From: Cirrosporium novae-zelandiae
Taxonomy: Eukaryota
Assembly: GCA_026023565.1 (NCBI GenBank)
Contig: JAPETS010000015.1
Location: forward strand, 310,001 to 374,000
Length of the DNA: 64,000 bases
Direction of reading: 5' to 3'
How positions within the stretch are numbered: position 1 is the first letter of the stretch; every line of letters begins with the position of its first letter. Positions 17,816-32,115 of the stretch are shown in pieces. The notes below the pieces were generated by a model. That model searched no databases, was not told where the DNA came from, and worked only from the letters and a program-made list of their open reading frames with translations. A program made the translations under genes and the position numbers.

Positions 17816-20800
17816 CTACTCGCTTCCTACCTCAGGCGGCTCCTCCCCTAACTCATCTGCCAGGGAGGGCATAACCTTCCTAGGACTAAAGGGCTCTTCC
17901 TCATCCTCCGTACCTATTTCCTCTTGGGGGCTAACACTGCCCCCGAGTATACTACTCTCATTGTCATCGCTCTCTTCAAACGCGCTAGCATTAAAGTTTG
18001 CAGCTTCTGCATCCTGATCATATGACCCCTTCCTCATTAACGGAGGGGTACTAGGCGGCTCTAGGGAAGATGGAGTATCGTCCTTATTCCCTAGTGGCCG
18101 AAGGGGCCGCATTTGTCCACTATATGACCTCAACGGTCGACTGCTAGTAGGTTGGCGTAGAGTTGGAATATCAACTGCCTTGGGTGTTTGCCTCAGGCTG
18201 GTACTTGGGGGAGTTAATAACCCAGCGAGAAGACCGTGCGAGGAGGAAGGCTTTGAGGGAGTCTGACTTCCGGTAGAAGCGGCATCGGAGCTGTTACTGG
18301 AGTGACGATCTCGGCCCTTTTGCCAGCTCCTCCAGGCAGCGGCAACACCCAGAGGAAGAGCACGTGGAGACGATACGACATTAGAGATATTTGCAAAGGA
18401 AGGGAAGGATTGCGTTCCAGACATAGCCTTTTCCTTTTCTTGTTGTTGCATTTCGAGATTGGCCTTAAGACGAATGGCTGCGTCCTTGGCGGCTTCTCTG
18501 TTGTATGACGGTGAAGAGAGCGTCCTGATGATATCTTGGAGGTCATCAATCCGAACACTAAGGAGCTCACGTAGCCAATTAACTTCGATTTCCTTCTCTT
18601 TCACCTTCCGAGGAGCCTCCTTGTCAACCTGGGAGAGTTCATTTTCGAGCTGCTCGATGCGAGCTTCACGCTCTTGAAGTTGCTCTTGGAGAACTATGAT
18701 AGATTCGCGTAGGGCTTGTGGAGAAATCCTTTCGGGCATATTTGTGAATACACTAGCGGTTGCTGTGGAATCTAGATTGGGGATTGGGGTAATTGTTTTC
18801 CCTGACACGGCTGCTTTAGCGGCAGCATTTGCAGCAGACTTAGCAATCTCGAGTTTCTCTTGCAGATGAACAACCTTATCTTGCATGTGTCTAGTCTTCT
18901 CGTCGGCAAGGTTCAAACGTTCAAGTAAATGAGCTTCGGTTCGCTGCTTATCCTCAGTGACATCCCGTAGTGTTCGAGCATGATGATCTTTCAGTTCCTC
19001 CAAAGTCATTTCATGGAAGCGATAATGCTCTTGCATGGCATTTTCTCTAGCTTCAGCAGCTTCTCGCAAAGCATTCTTCTTTGATTCTAGCGCTTCATCT
19101 AGTATCAAATCATGCCTTACTTTGGCTGCATCGGCATCCATCTTAGCCTTGTCCAATTGTGTTCGTAATAATATTGCTTCACTTTCGAAATGAGATTTGG
19201 ATGTATTAACCGAATGTTTGGCAGCTTCAATGTCAGCTTGCATCAACGCCTTGGTCCGCTGAACTTCCAATTTAGCACCCTCACGAGCAGTTAGGAGATC
19301 TCTTTCCAAGGCCGCAGCATGCTTCTGATGATCCAACGATTCTTGTCGAAGCTGGCTTGCTAATTCTTGAAGCTTAGTATTTTCTTGCTCATAGCGCTCA
19401 TTCGAGAATCGGAGCATTGCAGCCTCTCTAGCTTGGTCCTTCAACCCACGAATCTCAAGTTCTTGTCGCTCTCGTGCTTTGGAATTAGCGTTGGCTTGAG
19501 CTTTTAATAGATCGACCTGGGCTTGATATTCCTGATCTTTTCTCCTCCACTTGGCTTGGTCTTCGGCGATGTTCTGTGCAGCCACAGTCATATCTTCCTG
19601 GAGCTTGTCGAACTTGCTACGCAAGGTTTCCCGAGCCCTGAGACTGTCTTCCATGACATCCTTCATTGAATCTATTGTTCGTTTCAAGCTAGCGTTCTCG
19701 CCCTTAGTTTCCTGAATCTCCCCTTTCCATTCGGTCTTAGAAACTCTATACTCCTCTAGTGTGCCTTCAAGAGCAGAGTTCTTAACCGCCAGTTGCTCAC
19801 CAGCCTCTTTAAGTTGCTCAATTTCTTCTTCAAGGGATTCCGCATGATTCTGAGCGTCAATAAGCGCACGCTGTCGATCGTCATGGAAGTTACGTAAGCT
19901 TCGCTCGCTTTGTTCAGCAGCTTCGCGTTGTTGGGAGGCTTCTTCTTCGGCATTACTTAGACGAGATTTCATCTCCTCAAGCTCCTCTTCGACGGCACGG
20001 CGCTTCCTAGCTTCCTCTTGTGCTCTACTATCTGCAACCTTGAGCATACTTTCCAAGCCAGTGAGCTGCAGTTGCATCTTCTCTTCCACAGCAAGGTCGC
20101 GACTCCTGCTAACCGGATTATCTTTCATCAGGTTTTGGGCAACAATTGCCTCCTCAACAGCAGATTTTATCATCTCAGGATCAACCTTGGGAGTTGCCTC
20201 GACCGCGGAAGGAATCATTGTTTCTTTGAAGGCTACCAACGCTTCAACCATGGACTTAGGTACCATCGATTCTTTGAGAGCCGCGAGAGCTTCCAGGATC
20301 TCGGCAGATTCATTACGGGGTTGCTCCACTTTATTGAATGCAGTAAGATGAGCAGAGAGAGCGTCTAGAACAGCGGTTTTAATCAATTCTGGAGTAGATT
20401 GTTCAGTTTGTACTACGGTATTGTGAGCAGAAAGAGCATCGAGAACGGCTGTCTTGATGGCATCTGTCTTTCTTTGGCTTCGCTGCCAAGGGGATTTGGA
20501 TCGTGGTTGAACATCTACCTCGTCATCATCTTCATCATCAGCATCACTATGTACCACTTCAGCTGACATGCTTCTCCTATCTCGTCGGCTTGTCGAACGA
20601 GACGTAAGCATAACGAGCGACTTCTGCATAGAATCTAGAGCCTGCTCGAGTGGTCCTAATCTATGATCCAGGATGTTCCCAACAATATCATCAACACGAG
20701 TATCGAAGAAAGGTCCGCGCTGCTGGAGCTTGACGTCCTCACTCGGAGAGACAACACTATCCCAGTCGCTGATAGTAACATCTTCCGGATTATTGAGACG

Positions 20801-23800
20801 GTGAACAGGTGATTCGTATCTACGAATAGGAGAATCATCATACAAGAGCTGAGGCATGGTATCATCCTCAGGGCTTTGCTTAGTCTGTTGGTCGATATCG
20901 GTACTATCATGAGGCAGATGTTGATGAGTATCTAGCTTTCTAGGACTTGGGCTGGGTGCGTCGCTTCTCGGGTTGTACCTCTGATTTGGACCAAGGAAAG
21001 TTTCCTGCGTCAAATTACTCTCGTCCTGGCTAATCGGGCTGATCGGCTCCTCGTCATGAAGCTCTTCTGGTTCATCCAAATCCGAGTCTTCATCATTGAG
21101 ATGTTTCATGACAGCATCTATTTCGTCAAAACTTGGCTCAACTAGTGCCTCATATTTAAAGTTTCCACTTGCTGAGAAAGGAGCAGTTTCGTGTCGGTCT
21201 ACAGGCTCATCTAGATGCAAATCTGTTTCAACAGAAGCATCATGTTCTTCAAGTTCCTGCTCATATGCAGGTGGTGGAGAGGCTGCAGGCGAAGACGAGA
21301 ACGCAAACCGTGAGTCTTCTAGACCACCCTTTAGTATGGGCTGAGGAGTACCCTTCCGGGGGGATTTGACAGAAGTCATCTTCGGAGATGGTGAATTAGA
21401 TGCTGCGAAAGTGAAGGTACCGCTAGCGGCAAAAGTTACCGGTGCTGATTGTGACGACGAATTTGATTTCTCTGTATCAGATGCGCTTTCGAAAGTATAA
21501 TTCTTGATATCTTGCTTAGGCGAAATCTTGGCTTTACCCTCATCGGCAGTATTCTTGACCGCATTGTGGCTTAATACATCGTTTAGCATTGGAGGCCTTG
21601 CTGCATTGAAACTTGCGGCATCGTCTGTATGATCAAATTCAAACGGAGACCATTTATCCGGACTAGGTTTGTGATCGTCCTTAGGCTGAGCAGACTCTTT
21701 AGCCAGTGATTTGTGTTCAACTTCTTCGTTAGCGGTGTCGAGAGCAAGAGTAACCTTCCTTTTTTCTTGTCCAGCTGATCTGGGCCTTTGTGATTCTGGA
21801 GATCGTTGAGGTTTCAAGCTTTCTGGAACAGTCGTCGACTCAGCAAATTGTGGTTCCTGATCTTCAGCATCCGGTTCATGCCGAACTCTCTTAGTACGTT
21901 TATCACCCATTGATACTCTACCAGACCCATCTTCTAGATGCCCCTCTGATAATTTCTCTTCATTCTTCTCGGTATCCTCAGGCTTACGAATGGTGATAGC
22001 CTTTGATGCTTTGGGAGGTTTGACATATTGCCCAAAAGTAATATCACCGAACACATTGCTCTTGACGGTCTGTTCAGTTGCAAGATTGGCCTGAAAGTTT
22101 GGTGTATTTGGTGTTCCAGACGCTGGACCCCAATTTAAGCCATTTCCAGCCTGGAAAGCTGGTCCTGTAAAGTTAAAGTCGGATTTTGGCATGAAAGGTG
22201 CAGCGATGGCACTGGGTGTGAAGCTAGGTGCAGCGACATTGAAGCCTTTTGGAATACCAGGAGTCGAGTCCTGCCCTTCAGATTGCTCCTTAGCTTGGCC
22301 TAGAGGATTGTTCTGGGTCTCGGTTACGGGCTGGCTGATATTTGAAGAAGGTGGTTTTGGTTCGAAGTGGAACTCCTTGGCTTCGACATTGAACTTCGAC
22401 AAAGAGGGTTTTGGATGATGGCCAGATATAGTAGAGTTGTGTCTTTCTTTAGGCAAAACTGTACCTTCCCAGGGATTTGGAGCCGCCGCAGATTTAGCAT
22501 GCTCCTTTTGAAATTCGAATGCATCCTTGAATGCAGGCGAGTTAGATACACTGGGATTTGTAACAAGATCAGAAATCTCGCCCTCCTTAAGTTCTTCCTT
22601 TCTGAAAATAGCTTCTTTTCCTATTGGATGGTGTTGAGAAAGGGGATTTAGAGGGTCATGTTGTTTTCCGTTGTGTAGAGGACCTCTTAGATCATATATC
22701 TTCTCATCTTCTTGTAATTTCTCGTCATCCTCATCCATTTGCCGGCGAATCGATTCTTCTAAGTGATATTGAGAATCATCAATTTCTTTTTGCAATGTCT
22801 CACTTGCGCTCATCTGTTGATTCTGTACCGGCTCCTCCATATGATATTGTGCATTATCAACTTCATTTTGGAGATTCTGGCTGAGATTGTGATGATGACC
22901 GCGAGGAACTGGCTGAACTAGCTCTGGGCGATGGAATTCCGCTGGGGAGAAGCTACCTAACACGTCACCCGCACCTGTTTTGGATCGCATACGCTGGGAA
23001 TTCAATTTCAATTGTTGCTGTTGTTGCTGTTGTTGCTGCTGCTGTTGATCCAATATATGAGCCTGTAGCTGTTGCTGTCTCATTCGGGCTAGTAGTTCAT
23101 TTTGTTCGTTGGGCATCCCCGTGATGCCTGGAGAAATGTCGATAGATCCAGAACCCAATGCATGAGCAAGACTTGGATGAGTACCATGGAAAAATGGTGT
23201 GCTGCCTCTTGAACCGTCTTGCGATTCGAAGTATTGTAATGGTGACATTATTCCATTTGCAGGCGAAACGGCTGATGATGGAATTTGGAACGGCGATGGG
23301 AAAGACTTTTGATTCATGCCGAACGACACCGACCCCCTTGGAATATGAAGATTACTTGGGTGTACACCAGCATATTGGGAGGCGGGCGATGCAATTGAAC
23401 CGGTTGGGTTTGTAGAGGCATTGAATTGTGGAGAGAACGGATTTGGTGGACCCATTCCATGTCCACTGGCTCTGGAAGAGGTAGGCGGTGGTGGTGACAT
23501 CGATGGAAGTCCATGATGGTGTGCAAGTATCTGCTGTACACCTGGCAGTGAGGGTGTTGCACTGGCGCTGGCCGAGGGAGGTTCGTCACCAAAACTTACT
23601 CCTAAAGCGCGAAGTTTCTCTTCGTGGAGGAAATTCACGTAGGCGTCCCAGTCTCGTTGATCTGGTACGCTCACTTTATAATTGCCATTCTTCCATTCTC
23701 TTTTCGACTCTTCAGGATCTGGATAGACCAAACGGCTCTGGCCTCCAGCCTCAGCAATATCATTCCTATTTTGAAATTGAAATCCCATGGTATCATAACC

Positions 23801-25210
23801 CTCATCTCGCCATTTCTGTAACCTTGCTTCATTATCGGAAGGCATTAAAAGTTTAGGATGATTGCCTCCTGAACCCCTTTCATCATCAAACGGAAGCGCA
23901 ATTATACAAGCCTTGCCTCTCCATACAACACGTTTTCTAGAGCGTTGAAGTGGGGACGGTGACGATGACGAGACTCTTTGTCTAGCAGCTCCAAGAAGTG
24001 GGGGATGTAGTTCACTTTTTCGAGAGGCTTCCAGCTTGCCCTTCTCCTCGGCAGGAGGAGGTGGAAGTGGTTTATCAAATTCTGGATGATGCTCGTGTGA
24101 TTTCTCAAAATTTGAATTTTGATCCGAATGGTTGGAAGTTATCATGATTGATTTATAATCCTTCGATTCCCCGGATCCTTTCTTTGAGTGCCAAGAGCCC
24201 TCCATATGCATTGGATTTGATGGTGTTTGTTGATGATCCCCTTTCCTCAGCTCGGGGGCTGGTGTGGGATCCGCGTAAATGGAAGCAAACATATTGGGCG
24301 GTGAGCTAGGTGTTTGGTCTAGGTCGCCGGTGAATGTGTCCCAAAAGTCCGCTTGCTTAAGCGTAGCAGTACTGGATTGCTTGGGTTTATGGCGTCGAAT
24401 GCTAGAAGAGGCTTTCTCGTCTTCTGCTCGCTTTGCCTCCTGTCGTTCTAGAAAATTCTTCAAGGTCGGTGTCCTAAGCCCCTCCTCCTGTTGGTGTACT
24501 TTGTCAAGGCCCAGCCAGGGATTATCCTCAAAATCTTCGTGTTTCTCTTCAGTTGACTGCCAATCACTCTCAGCGGAATCGTCGCTCCACCAATTCCCAC
24601 GTTCGGTATGCTGTTGCCCTGAAAGATATTGGCGAATTCGAGCTGTCGTTACTTCACGTGAAGTGAGTCTCTTTTTCGAATCTAATACCGCACCAGCAAG
24701 AGCACGACCAAAGGTCCTTGAAGCGTATGACGAGCCTCCGTCAGTAGTAGATCCAGCCGATCTTACTGTGCCGGTTCTTCTCGAGCCTTTGACACGAAGG
24801 CTATTGTTCCGGCCCGGGGGCGATTCTTCCCCTGACTTGTAAACCGAAACGATTGTCGACGGAGCTCTAGAAGTAGCGCTCGGGAGAGCGTACGGAGATC
24901 CCCAGACGGCAGTATAATAGGCACTACTTGCGTCTGTTGGAGGATGTTCTACCGGAGAACCCGGAGTTTGAGGTCGATCCTCGGCAGGAGGCAATGTCAA
25001 TAGCTGTGGAAGAGCCGGGGAGGGTAATCGGTGGGCTAGATCTGCCGGAGAGGGAGCTGTCCAAAGACTAGCTGATCGCGAATGACTCCCTGTTGCGCAG
25101 GAAGACTTGGGAGAAGAAAGCACAGACACCGAATTTGGGGAAGCTATGAGGGCTGGATCAACAACATGTGTTAGTTGAATAATCGTGTCTAGTTGCAGAT
25201 GGAATGACAT
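17816..25210 (-). CDS. Large protein (up to 2464 aa): disordered N-half with PAM2-like motifs and polyQ, long C-terminal coiled coil, no motor domain (the type often auto-annotated myosin heavy chain-like)
   Basis: Uninterrupted 7.4-kb ORF. Heptad-rich E/K/Q/A region at about aa 1710-2260. Start uncertain (25210 vs 24292). Confidence 0.85.
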   Translation of the reverse strand: MSFHLQLDTIIQLTHVVDPALIASPNSVSVLSSPKSSCATGSHSRSASLWTAPSPADLAHRLPSPALPQLLTLPPAEDRPQTPGSPVEHPPTDASSAYYTAVWGSPYALPSATSRAPSTIVSVYKSGEESPPGRNNSLRVKGSRRTGTVRSAGSTTDGGSSYASRTFGRALAGAVLDSKKRLTSREVTTARIRQYLSGQQHTERGNWWSDDSAESDWQSTEEKHEDFEDNPWLGLDKVHQQEEGLRTPTLKNFLERQEAKRAEDEKASSSIRRHKPKQSSTATLKQADFWDTFTGDLDQTPSSPPNMFASIYADPTPAPELRKGDHQQTPSNPMHMEGSWHSKKGSGESKDYKSIMITSNHSDQNSNFEKSHEHHPEFDKPLPPPPAEEKGKLEASRKSELHPPLLGAARQRVSSSSPSPLQRSRKRVVWRGKACIIALPFDDERGSGGNHPKLLMPSDNEARLQKWRDEGYDTMGFQFQNRNDIAEAGGQSRLVYPDPEESKREWKNGNYKVSVPDQRDWDAYVNFLHEEKLRALGVSFGDEPPSASASATPSLPGVQQILAHHHGLPSMSPPPPTSSRASGHGMGPPNPFSPQFNASTNPTGSIASPASQYAGVHPSNLHIPRGSVSFGMNQKSFPSPFQIPSSAVSPANGIMSPLQYFESQDGSRGSTPFFHGTHPSLAHALGSGSIDISPGITGMPNEQNELLARMRQQQLQAHILDQQQQQQQQQQQQLKLNSQRMRSKTGAGDVLGSFSPAEFHRPELVQPVPRGHHHNLSQNLQNEVDNAQYHMEEPVQNQQMSASETLQKEIDDSQYHLEESIRRQMDEDDEKLQEDEKIYDLRGPLHNGKQHDPLNPLSQHHPIGKEAIFRKEELKEGEISDLVTNPSVSNSPAFKDAFEFQKEHAKSAAAPNPWEGTVLPKERHNSTISGHHPKPSLSKFNVEAKEFHFEPKPPSSNISQPVTETQNNPLGQAKEQSEGQDSTPGIPKGFNVAAPSFTPSAIAAPFMPKSDFNFTGPAFQAGNGLNWGPASGTPNTPNFQANLATEQTVKSNVFGDITFGQYVKPPKASKAITIRKPEDTEKNEEKLSEGHLEDGSGRVSMGDKRTKRVRHEPDAEDQEPQFAESTTVPESLKPQRSPESQRPRSAGQEKRKVTLALDTANEEVEHKSLAKESAQPKDDHKPSPDKWSPFEFDHTDDAASFNAARPPMLNDVLSHNAVKNTADEGKAKISPKQDIKNYTFESASDTEKSNSSSQSAPVTFAASGTFTFAASNSPSPKMTSVKSPRKGTPQPILKGGLEDSRFAFSSSPAASPPPAYEQELEEHDASVETDLHLDEPVDRHETAPFSASGNFKYEALVEPSFDEIDAVMKHLNDEDSDLDEPEELHDEEPISPISQDESNLTQETFLGPNQRYNPRSDAPSPSPRKLDTHQHLPHDSTDIDQQTKQSPEDDTMPQLLYDDSPIRRYESPVHRLNNPEDVTISDWDSVVSPSEDVKLQQRGPFFDTRVDDIVGNILDHRLGPLEQALDSMQKSLVMLTSRSTSRRDRRSMSAEVVHSDADDEDDDEVDVQPRSKSPWQRSQRKTDAIKTAVLDALSAHNTVVQTEQSTPELIKTAVLDALSAHLTAFNKVEQPRNESAEILEALAALKESMVPKSMVEALVAFKETMIPSAVEATPKVDPEMIKSAVEEAIVAQNLMKDNPVSRSRDLAVEEKMQLQLTGLESMLKVADSRAQEEARKRRAVEEELEEMKSRLSNAEEEASQQREAAEQSERSLRNFHDDRQRALIDAQNHAESLEEEIEQLKEAGEQLAVKNSALEGTLEEYRVSKTEWKGEIQETKGENASLKRTIDSMKDVMEDSLRARETLRSKFDKLQEDMTVAAQNIAEDQAKWRRKDQEYQAQVDLLKAQANANSKARERQELEIRGLKDQAREAAMLRFSNERYEQENTKLQELASQLRQESLDHQKHAAALERDLLTAREGAKLEVQRTKALMQADIEAAKHSVNTSKSHFESEAILLRTQLDKAKMDADAAKVRHDLILDEALESKKNALREAAEARENAMQEHYRFHEMTLEELKDHHARTLRDVTEDKQRTEAHLLERLNLADEKTRHMQDKVVHLQEKLEIAKSAANAAAKAAVSGKTITPIPNLDSTATASVFTNMPERISPQALRESIIVLQEQLQEREARIEQLENELSQVDKEAPRKVKEKEIEVNWLRELLSVRIDDLQDIIRTLSSPSYNREAAKDAAIRLKANLEMQQQEKEKAMSGTQSFPSFANISNVVSSPRALPLGVAAAWRSWQKGRDRHSSNSSDAASTGSQTPSKPSSSHGLLAGLLTPPSTSLRQTPKAVDIPTLRQPTSSRPLRSYSGQMRPLRPLGNKDDTPSSLEPPSTPPLMRKGSYDQDAEAANFNASAFEESDDNESSILGGSVSPQEEIGTEDEEEPFSPRKVMPSLADELGEEPPEVGSE

Positions 25211-26475
25211 GGGAAGCTTACAGTCCGTTTCGTCTGATTAAGCAGACGATGAACAATCGTCTGCGACTAGAAGCGCTTGTGATATTTCAGAGATACTTTT
25301 CCATCGGTTAGTTTTCGACCAGTTGGGGATATGATTTGTTGAGGTAGCTGTACATTACAGAGTACTCAAGGAAAATGCCGAAAAGGAGGTTATGTTGGAA
25401 GAGCGTCACACGAGATGAGATGTCGATAATAAAGGCATCTCACAGACTGGACTGTTTTTGATTATAACGAGACCAGAAGGCGATGAGATGGGATGTTCTT
25501 GACGCTCTCTCTCCCTGTCGCGAAACAATACTTTTGAGAGAGGGACGTGTCTCTTGGAGTAAGATTCGAGAAGGGGAGCACTTAGTCTTTAATTGCAGGG
25601 GTTATTATAATACTAGTACATAAATGGATAAATGTGCTCCTTCCCGATACCTAAATTGCCTTGGGGGAAGAGACGAAGAACATCAATTTTTGTTTCTTCA
25701 TTTTTACCCTGTTTGATATCGAACCAAGAATTATAATGATATAGAAATTTATGTTTTTTCTTTTGAATATTGTGTGATATCATTTTTACTTCATCAGGAA
25801 AACAGTGTGATAAAGAAATAATATAATTCCAACCACTAACTTATATAAAGGCCTCTTCCTACCTTCATCCCCTGGTCCTCCTCATCCACTTAAGCATAAA
25901 AAACTAATAGGGAACTTAAGGAATCTATTGGTCAGGCTTGCCCCTTAACCAAAATTTGCTTTTGATAATCTGCCAGCTGGCAAATCGACAACACGTATTT
26001 CCTAGGCATGAGTAATTTCTAAAATTGCAAATATCTTCTTATACGTTGTATAGAAATAATGTAGGTCGCCAACTTACCAAAACCAGTTTCCTGCACTATT
26101 AATTTCATCAACCACCCAACTATTATATGCCGAGCACCTCTATTGAGCACACGCTCCCCAAAGTAGTCTCTGTCTTTTTGAATCTGCTGTTTCCCAAAAT
26201 ATTCTGCTACCAATTCAAGCCATCCGATAATCCATGACATCAGAAGAAAGCCGAAGCAAAGTACTAAAATATGGTTGAATAAAAGTTTATCGGCACGAAG
26301 ACTCAGTCCACCCGTTAAATATTTCCAGACTTAACCTTCAATAATATATGTTCAAACCCTCCATATAAACGTTGCTGCAACCCACCTCTTCCTCCCTCAT
26401 GGCAAATAAGTTGAGGGAAAAAAAACTGTCTGTGAATTTGTCTTCTTAATGGTGGTGATTGCATTCAATTGAACA

Positions 26476-29811: not shown

Positions 29812-32115
29812 TCAAGGCAAACCAAAGTCATCAGCAGTAGAGTTTGAAAAAACAAAGCTCCTCGGCTTTTGCTCTCCAGCTAGCTGCTTTGCCGCAAAAG
29901 CATGGTTTTCTTTTTGATTTGGAAATTCTTGCATTTGGATTTCCATGGGTTTCTGGTTTGGCTCGACAGAAAACTCATGTTGAGTGAAATAAGGATGTGC
30001 AATCGGATATTGTGGATAGTACATGGCGATAGCTTGAGGGTTGTCCGAAGAAAAGTGTGGTGCTTGTTCGTTAGAACGAAGGCCGTATGTTCCATTATCA
30101 TGAAAAACCGTATTCGCGGCTTGATAATTGACAGAGGAAATGTGGCTTGGTTGAGGCATGTTAATCGTGGGAGGTATCGAATGAAATTCAGGCGAGGTTA
30201 GAGGCGCATCTGGCCAGCTACTATCTGTAGGGAGACCAGCGGAATAAGGAGGTGTATAATTTTGGAAATTGGCATATTGCGGCTGTGGTGGAGCCGACAA
30301 TGGAACAAACTGCTGACCATTGAGGCATTGACTCTGACCCTGTAAGAGATTGCCGTGAGGGGTTACCGGGGGTGTTTGAACTCTGGGCATGGATACAGAG
30401 GTTTCAGAAACGGTTCCAGAATATGCATCGAGCATACCCATTTGCGAAGGGTCGAATGGCTGACGTACTCCATATGCGGGAGATGATGCCGGGGCATTGG
30501 ATGATTTGGAAACCGGAATTGTAAATTCGGTGGGTGAACTCGTCGTTGGCGGTGTCAGGAGGTCATCCAAGGCATCCGCTGACTGGAAAGTAGTAGCAAG
30601 TGGAGAGCGTTGTGATGAGCCTGGGTAGCTCTTCTGGACGCGTCCGTTCATGACATTTAGACTGTGGCCTGTGGATTTAATCCTGCGGACCGAGTGCCCT
30701 GGCATAGGATAACCCTTTCCAGTGGGTGACAGAGAATTCGGTCCGAATGATCTACTGCGAAGAGCTGCCGGTCCAAGAGCAGCTGGACGTGGACGTTTTC
30801 TCCTCGCAGCAATGTCCAAATGGCCTTCTGGCCTCTTGAAGACATCGGAGTCGTCAAGTGGCTCAGGAGAATATGCGTTTGGAATCTGAAGATGCGATTG
30901 CAACTGGTGGTTCATTTGCATATCTTGTTCATCCGCGGACGATTGACCATTTGGTTCAACAGAATACTGCTGGATTGGAGTATGCTGCTCAGATGAAATC
31001 TCTGGTTGTTTTGAATCGATTTCAATACCATTAAAGTCAAGGGCCAGTTCCTCCGTGTAAGAGGGATGTCTTTGGAAAGACATTGGAAAAAGGTGATTGT
31101 TTACATCGCTTAAAGATTGAGATGTCATTGGATCCGTAAAGGTAGGCTCGGTATCAGTGAACCGAAAGCCTGAACATTGCAGCCAATCTTGTCCATCAAG
31201 GACCTGATCAAAATCTGGATTTATAGGTGAGGGATTGGAAGGCGAAGCATGCATTGGAAGTGAAAAAACCCTGGACATGCAAAATGGATCGTTCATAGGA
31301 AGAATAGGGGTACAGTTCGCAGAAGACGTAGCACTGCTTCCCCAATCCGAGAAAGTCTTCTCAATTGAACTTTCCGAGACAGATGGAGCCATCATACTTG
31401 TTGCGATGAGAGTATTTTCGCCTGGGGCTGTGGTACTCTCGGTCTGTCCGTCATAGTCTGCATCACACTTACTAGGAGCAGAATCCATTGCGGAAATGGC
31501 ATTCTCAAAGGTGTAGCATGCCTCTCGGGTTTGCTCGCTTTGTTCATTCCGACGAGCGTCACCAGTCGCTAAGTCGAGGGCATCCGATGAGGTGTCCGAT
31601 AATTTTGCTTGGCTTGGTGTTGCTGATGATTCGCTAGCGTGTTGACTGGAATTCGATCTGTAGTTTGCCAACTCAAACTCTTCTCTTTTCTTATCTTGTT
31701 TCGCCTTTGCCCGTCGATTTTGGAACCAATTCTAAAGCATGTTAATTAATCATATCTAGTAGACTCCAAAGATTGCTCTTACATTGACGCGCGGTATTTC
31801 AAGTTCAAGCTCAAATGCGAGCTTCTTTTTGTGAGCGCTATTTGGTTTTGGGTTATCCTGAAACTCCTTTTCTAACCTAGCAGCTTGCTTCTTGTCTAAG
31901 CGCGGCCTTGTCGTAATTTCATATTCCTCCATCTCGTCTGCGATGATTATATCTGGTCGCTCATCATAGCGGCCTGGAATTGGCATACGCCCATCCATAC
32001 CTGGATGAAGTTGCGGAGCAGATAAGGCGAGAGCGTTAGCGTAGAGCGAGGCTTGGTCGGTAGGTCTAGTAGGAATGAGGCCATATGGGGCGCGATGATA
32101 TTGAACGAAAGCCAT
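29812..32115 (-). CDS. hbxA: Homeodomain transcription factor, HbxA/Hbx1/Htf1 type (intron 31732..31782)
   Basis: RPRLDKKQAARLEKEFQDNPKPNSAHKKKLAFELELEIPRVN|NWFQNRRAKAKQ homeodomain, IAARRKRPRPAALG motif and C-terminal FVFSNST. Confidence 0.85.

Follow-up and report, generated by a model that had tools for sequence, protein, structure and literature searches.

Proteins extended at the N-terminus from a weak first start codon, with a stronger start further downstream, have been described for several fungal genes. They are the closest counterparts of the locus analysed here, the pxdA gene of Cirrosporium novae-zelandiae, which lies on the minus strand of a stretch of 64,000 nucleotides (nt) (GenBank assembly GCA_026023565.1, contig JAPETS010000015.1, positions 310,001 to 374,000; 'the window', in whose numbering positions are given). 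As reported for the cpc-1 extension in Pezizomycotina (Ivanov et al. 2017, PMC5487733), pxdA has conserved near-cognate codons (ACG, AUU, CUG) in good context, purifying selection on the extension, upstream open reading frames (uORFs) within the leader and annotations that do not settle the start. In contrast to cpc-1, each lineage has a single dominant start position, followed 7 nt later by an intron; ~860 nt are free of AUGs, a hairpin 5′ of the codon covaries, and in some lineages a poor-context AUG takes the codon's place. Initiation at cpc-1 was shown by experiment (PMC5487733), whereas the pxdA start is predicted from sequence. The dual-start fungal genes (Wallace et al. 2020, PMC7049704; Kremp et al. 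2020, PMC7214817) share with pxdA a leaky first and a strong second start, as well as swaps between weak AUG and near-cognate codons from fungus to fungus, but their reported extensions are short targeting peptides, whereas that of pxdA is about 290 residues long. Both structure-assisted non-AUG initiation (START, PMC11165317) and pxdA place a stem-loop near a near-cognate codon. START, however, requires structure 3′ of the codon, and the most conserved hairpin of pxdA is 5′ of it; the stable structure expected for START about 14–23 nt 3′ of the codon has no equivalent in the window's group of relatives, where no downstream folding minimum was found. Judged by its sequence, pxdA carries every mark of the class of near-cognate extensions and leaky scanning.

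We propose that pxdA is probably spliced constitutively, with a weak ACG as the start of a long form and leaky scanning to Met307 as the source of a short one. The intron at the 5′ end of the gene would be an ordinary one, normally removed from pxdA mRNA, and scanning ribosomes would meet a weak, well-placed near-cognate ACG at 25228. The fraction initiating there would make long PxdA (2447 amino acids (aa), about 271 kDa) with a 289-residue N-terminal extension, while the rest would scan 864 nt with no AUG in any frame and initiate at the strong, conserved Met307, giving short PxdA (2158 aa, about 240 kDa). Start-codon stringency, together with the upstream hairpin and the uORFs of the leader, would fix the ratio of long to short; splicing would not. 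What we observe is the sequence anatomy, its conservation, AUG depletion, purifying selection, covariation and the identity of the gene; what we infer is the use of the ACG, the synthesis of both proteins from one mRNA and any role of hairpin and uORFs. The elements concerned are these:

25238..25240, minus strand: in-frame TAA closing the frame, three codons before the ACG
25222..25228, minus strand: coding part of exon 1, comprising the putative start ACG (25228), one codon and one base
25153..25221, minus strand: 69-nt phase-1 intron; position conserved, length and content not
25208..25210, minus strand: in-frame intronic ATG, C at −3 (poor context), not conserved; first ATG of the genomic reading frame
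25165..25167, minus strand: out-of-frame intronic ATG opening 7 codons, read from the sequence
24293..25152, minus strand: coding extension lacking any AUG (860 nt of exon 2) and bearing conserved motifs
24290..24292, minus strand: Met307, second start, A at −3, conserved
17816..24292, minus strand: PxdA body, 2158 aa, with DUF8275 region, PAM2-like motifs and a long predicted C-terminal coiled coil

The genomic open reading frame (ORF) encodes 2464 aa (25210–17816), its first in-frame ATG being that at 25210. It stays open through the intron (25221–25153), which has a GTAAGC donor, an ACTAAC branch site at 25175 and a CCAG acceptor, and it is closed upstream by the TAA at 25240. Beyond the in-frame and out-of-frame (25167) intronic ATGs, all three frames lack an ATG as far as Met307 (24292). 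An earlier account of this DNA, drawn from its letters and ORFs (the sequence-only reading), had described the consensus in-frame intron, its two ATGs as the only ones before Met307, the TAA a few codons upstream of the donor and Met307 as the first AUG downstream of the splice, and in all of this it was right. Absent from it was the in-frame ACG at 25228, which lies between TAA and donor, 7 nt before the latter, and is retained after splicing. Signals of this kind are not rare enough to identify an intron by themselves (5 matches in the window against 2.29 expected, with 10/100 shuffles reaching 5), and the case for its reality was therefore made from relatives. A stwintron was rejected on direct reading, since no new donor arises on splicing.

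A pattern scan gave 93 metagenome loci; with the window counted in, 53 loci were non-redundant and had enough upstream DNA. Lineage labels come from pairwise matches without a tree (Pleosporales-like, 65–69%; Aureobasidium-like, 85%; Acarospora-like, 55%; Venturia-like), and the groups of L012 and L053 carry no label. The top-scoring candidate was a phase-1 intron at the equivalent place in 25/53 loci, that is, 24 and the window. Exon 1 ends with a near-cognate codon, GAN and one further nucleotide in 16 of these 25: CUG in 8 (Venturia-like), GUG in 4, and ACG in 4 (the window and three Eurotiales-like loci). The start context in this first group is purine at −3, G at +4 and A at +5 in 9/9 representatives, the window's ACG having G, G and A. 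In the remaining nine loci, exon 2 carries an ACG (8) or AUU (1) within its first few codons, the context being acaNNNtct; in two of these nine, a stop in frame at the donor means that the start does not lie further upstream. A near-cognate in-frame codon in strong context thus occupies a conserved place in 16 + 9 of the 25 loci. Five further loci (Aureobasidium-like and some others) have an in-frame ACG or AUU at the start, while every one of the 18 Pleosporales-like loci has an AUG there, with U at −3, and four loci without a lineage label have a similar poor-context AUG. The pattern is present in each locus group. Database annotations disagree about the start, with 91 different first six residues among 107 homologues and some proteins fused to the upstream glucanase. 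As a separate observation, two Pleosporales-like loci (L025, L058) show, ~55 nt before their AUG, GTG/CTG GAA G followed by a donor-like GTGCGC, as if the AUG had arisen at the 3′ end of an old intron.

Substitution patterns and motifs show the ~290-codon region upstream of Met307 to be protein-coding and under purifying selection. The ratio of non-synonymous to synonymous substitution rates (dN/dS) was 0.02–0.24 in 12/12 pairs of related loci, similar to the region downstream; the dS of the extension was below that of the downstream region in every comparable pair. Over its length of about 290 residues the extension is of low complexity with several short conserved motifs: among 120 homologues, 108 have YYTAxWGSPY, 115 have WWSD and 95 have TLxQxDF, and the window has YYTAxWGSPY (24919–24890), NWWSDD (~24595–24578), the acidic WLGL and TLxQxDFW. 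The acidic stretch followed by WLGL (residues 226–235, ~24530–24500, minus strand), found in 82/120 homologues, would belong to the long form only; we take it to resemble an Atg8-interacting motif.

This coding region is almost devoid of AUGs. Scored from weak start to second Met in 38/43 loci (five were dropped where the contig ended), it holds 18 ATGs out of frame, where codon shuffles predict 192.6, plus 3 in frame. For the window the figure is 0 in 864 nt; 8.2 would be expected out of frame, or about 19 over all frames if the density after Met307 is applied. The depletion sets in at the weak start itself and spans the entire 640–920 nt in three groups. Among database proteins there are 21 Met in 15,398 extension residues versus 171 after the extension. 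A Met stands within 35 residues of the TLxQxDF anchor in 94/95 proteins (Met307 in the window), and the second Met has a purine at −3 in 36/38 loci. Purifying selection, AUG depletion and a conserved strong downstream AUG, the properties of a leaky-scanned extension, are therefore all found here. The short form would start (24292–24260, minus strand) with a motif of the type M-x-x-S-R/K/I-W/Y/F-A, seen in many relatives and repeated in some. An antisense ORF of 187 aa (24279–24842, plus strand), with no Pfam match, overlaps the extension.

AUG depletion and a conserved Met307 would be explained equally well if the long form came from the near-cognate codon and the short form from a second, downstream transcription start, the AUG-poor stretch being its leader and no leaky scanning taking place; the short uORFs found within the extension of some lineages do resemble leader features. 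We nevertheless consider this unlikely, because the depletion starts exactly at the weak start and covers all of the 640–920 nt in three groups, and because a weak first start (non-AUG, or with U at −3) is what leaky scanning predicts.

The sequence-only reading had instead proposed that splicing removes the long-isoform start and that intron retention acts as an isoform switch: retained mRNA would give the long form from ATG 25210, and spliced mRNA the Met307 form only. It had also called for the intron position to be compared in orthologues, and the comparison placed the intron at the same site and phase in 24 loci, with the GT donor, CTRAY branch site, YAG acceptor and conserved position and phase of a spliceosomal U2 intron. 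By this conservation, and by its precise absence from one related locus (L043, below), the intron is real and old, but the features needed for a retention switch are not kept. Across the 25 loci its length varies from 48 to 214 nt (3n in 8, 3n+1 in 11, 3n+2 in 6), and the frame stays open on retention in only five. An in-frame ATG running to the acceptor occurs in seven, against 3.1 expected and 3 and 4 in the control frames; four of the seven loci are one clade and in another the ATG is part of the donor. Open frame and in-frame ATG coincide in 2/25. Thus a length of 3n, a stop-free frame and an in-frame AUG are properties of the window's intron, and do speak for regulated retention there, but they are not maintained across relatives. 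Two further observations are in its favour: the excess of in-frame intronic ATGs over expectation, which includes good context in the four-locus clade, and the many annotated Eurotiales proteins that begin a few residues before a conserved DLD motif, whose starts may be intronic ATGs. Against it, 18/25 loci have no in-frame intronic ATG and yet the extension is under selection, spliced orthologues lacking any upstream AUG keeping the 290-codon stretch; ATG 25210 itself has C at −3; and one locus (L043) is without exactly the 57-nt intron of its relative L042, hairpin, ACG and flanks being kept. In another (L033) GTG GAA G runs directly into exon 2 on direct reading, the automatic alignment with L037 having placed the gap uncleanly; each of these two loci may represent either a gene without the intron or a transcript already spliced. 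Regulated retention is accordingly very unlikely as the general explanation: of the earlier proposal, two isoforms remain likely, whereas the introns of relatives argue against retention as their cause. The ATG at 25210 is most likely not the real start, although retention is possible as a minor route in this species.

Highly improbable is an unseen upstream exon bearing an AUG and spliced to a micro-exon before the donor, or directly to the 25153 acceptor, which would make the ACG a plain Thr codon: an AG does lie 12 nt before the donor, in phase 1, in 13/16 loci (CAG in the window), but 10 of those 13 are GAG or AAG, the G of this AG is the −6 of the initiation context, no CTRAY branch site lies 5–35 nt upstream of any candidate in 16/16 loci, the codons swapped (CUG, GUG and ACG, for Leu, Val and Thr) are always one base from AUG, and the AUG depletion would be left unexplained.

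Under the proposed weak ACG start and leaky scanning, the leader would contribute to the choice between starts, and it contains the following elements:

25242..25264, minus strand: hairpin of 9 base pairs with a loop of 5 nt, its end 13 nt short of the ACG; relatives have the corresponding stem, with compensatory changes
25406..25438, minus strand: 10-codon uORF (ATG 25438), 210 nt before the ACG; position shared with relatives, sequence not; function putative
25308..25355, minus strand: 15-codon out-of-frame uORF; none at this place in relatives
25287..25304, minus strand: 5-codon out-of-frame uORF, C at −3, read from the sequence

The hairpin of relatives ends 10–15 nt before the near-cognate codon. 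In an alignment of eight sequences, 4/9 pairs have changed on both sides and 95.8% of cells are paired; 0/500 shuffles reach this covariation score and slid controls pair at ≤36%. With the groups folded apart, pairs with double changes number 4/9, 1/17 and 0/9, the stem of the other groups sitting at a comparable place but covarying little, and being weaker among the Pleosporales-like loci. When all hairpins were put into a single alignment, no consensus structure emerged, since they differ in loop length and register, and an Rfam search of 24800–25800 gave nothing near threshold. The folding minimum over −250..+300 sits just 5′ of the start in nine representatives; one group of loci (L008, L012, L022, L031, L042 and L004) has an additional hairpin ~20–55 nt downstream of the start, on the side where START has its structure. 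In the window, the 3′ arm of the hairpin can also pair with a second CAGACGA copy at 25236 (25249–25230, minus strand), giving a stem whose end is a single base short of the ACG; the two structures are mutually exclusive and of similar energy. As for uORFs, a short one lies ~190–235 nt before the weak start in most groups, and a four-codon uORF, M-S-L-L/F, 186–235 nt before it and often nested in a longer in-frame uORF, is common to two distant groups (L012, L022, L030, L031 and L049; L013, L025, L026, L034, L038, L041, L058, L060, L072 and L081). A possible 62-nt leader intron was also noted at 25358–25297 (minus strand; GTAATG, ACTAAC at 25312, weak AAG acceptor), splicing of which would remove the ATGs at 25355 and 25304.

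Several points weigh against a weak ACG start with leaky scanning to Met307. The intron has no strong candidate in 19/53 loci and could not be resolved in 9/53; the first, 16-locus group was defined after the pattern had been seen; and the counts overstate independence, since the loci are related. Six of the eight hairpin sequences are one clade, and in the window the rival fold scores no worse than the conserved hairpin (z −1.4). The two extra leader ATGs of the window (25355, 25304) are nearer the ACG than the 10-codon uORF. Several Eurotiales have an in-frame Met near residue 140, and 13 Dothideomycete-like loci (L003, L011, L016, L019, L045, L046, L061, L065, L037, L009, L033, L020 and L063) have an out-of-frame uORF of 3–5 codons 58–76 nt after the start, several with purine at −3. 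Where AUGs are thus kept in the extension, reinitiation or further leaking would be needed, and the 3–5 codon uORF may itself control reinitiation at the second Met. Lastly, A. nidulans PxdA was reported as one band of about 250 kDa, without a doublet (10.1101/034231), although two forms 12% apart in a large acidic protein may have run together on that blot.

By homology the gene is an orthologue of PxdA. The first 560 residues as query returned 330 homologues, the named ones all from filamentous ascomycetes, annotated with DUF8275 (PF26916) and frequently called 'myosin class II heavy chain', a name we reject as reflecting the coiled coil only. The A. fumigatus homologue (P0122) has 36% identity to the window protein over 2072 columns. 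From its neighbour Bgt1 we take it to be Afu1g11450. This presumed identifier leads to PxdA/AN1156 (10.64898/2026.03.03.708097, PMC6106085). Two peptides read from published A. nidulans pxdA primers (PMC8101442), LQERVAHL and DGPFGPQI, are present in homologues P0072 and P0087, the former aligning in the window protein at 2109, which confirms the PxdA family without relying on the presumed identifier. A search of the gene's own genome gave a single match. Residue R2044 (coiled coil 3), mapped by distance from the C-terminus to within a patch and not down to one residue, would lie in DAAIRLKANL, which is present in the window. The DUF8275 region covers approximately residues 426–545 of the 2464-aa ORF, its limits being estimated and the domain taken from homologue annotation; a long C-terminal coiled coil is predicted, and a local Pfam search gave only a sub-threshold CITED match. 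What we take to be PAM2-like motifs lie at 940 and 990, downstream of Met307.

Work on PxdA describes a tether of peroxisomes, Woronin bodies and SsdA messenger ribonucleoprotein particles (mRNPs) to moving early endosomes, with a coiled coil sufficient for peroxisome transport and an N-terminal region called uncharacterised (10.1101/034231, PMC8101442, PMC10295486, 10.64898/2026.03.03.708097, 10.64898/2026.04.14.718127). The window protein is similar in size to the PxdA of these papers; like it, it has a long N-terminal region of low complexity and a coiled coil at the C-terminus, carries PAM2-like motifs and ranges over the Pezizomycotina. They present a single protein of 2236 aa, with mention of two predicted ORFs, whereas two forms are proposed here; the words 'isoform' and 'start codon' are absent from the main text of four of them, and a search of open literature and main texts found neither a non-AUG start nor isoforms reported for PxdA. 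Upa2 of Ustilago maydis is similar in architecture and role: it has about 2100 aa, PAM2 motifs in its centre and a coiled coil at the C-terminus, and it acts in the endosomal transport of mRNA (10.1101/455378, 10.1101/467787). Orthology was considered on these grounds but is not supported: no sequence link was found, and in the papers on PxdA ascomycetes are reported to lack Upa2 and U. maydis to lack PxdA.

PxdA is a key linker for organelle and mRNP hitchhiking in filamentous ascomycetes, with effects on development and secondary metabolism, and its N-terminal 1400 residues have been described as uncharacterised. If the proposed weak start is used, a conserved long PxdA isoform exists whose extension could be probed by changing one codon; most database starts for pxdA would be wrong, being intronic ATGs, Mets within the protein or fusions to the glucanase upstream, and residue numbering and N-terminal tagging of PxdA would need care. 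CUG, GUG, ACG, AUU and poor-context AUG would, moreover, interchange at one start across fungal classes, with the hairpin upstream and not downstream. A bolder version, which we regard as doubtful, makes the two forms regulated proteoforms: the 5′ hairpin would actively set the start rate at about the edge of the 40S subunit, for example by refolding behind it or by factor binding; cargo, whether an mRNP, a peroxisome or some other organelle, would be chosen by the extension, 290 residues long and with conserved motifs that contain Trp; and stringency would tune which riders the endosome carries.

The upstream neighbour in the window is a gene at 32115–29812 (minus strand) with a 51-nt intron at 31782–31732, presumably a homeobox gene. 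Many database records instead join PxdA to a GH17 glucanase lying upstream of it. Within the PxdA body of the window there is a run of eleven glutamines (residues 723–733, ~23050–23010, minus strand).

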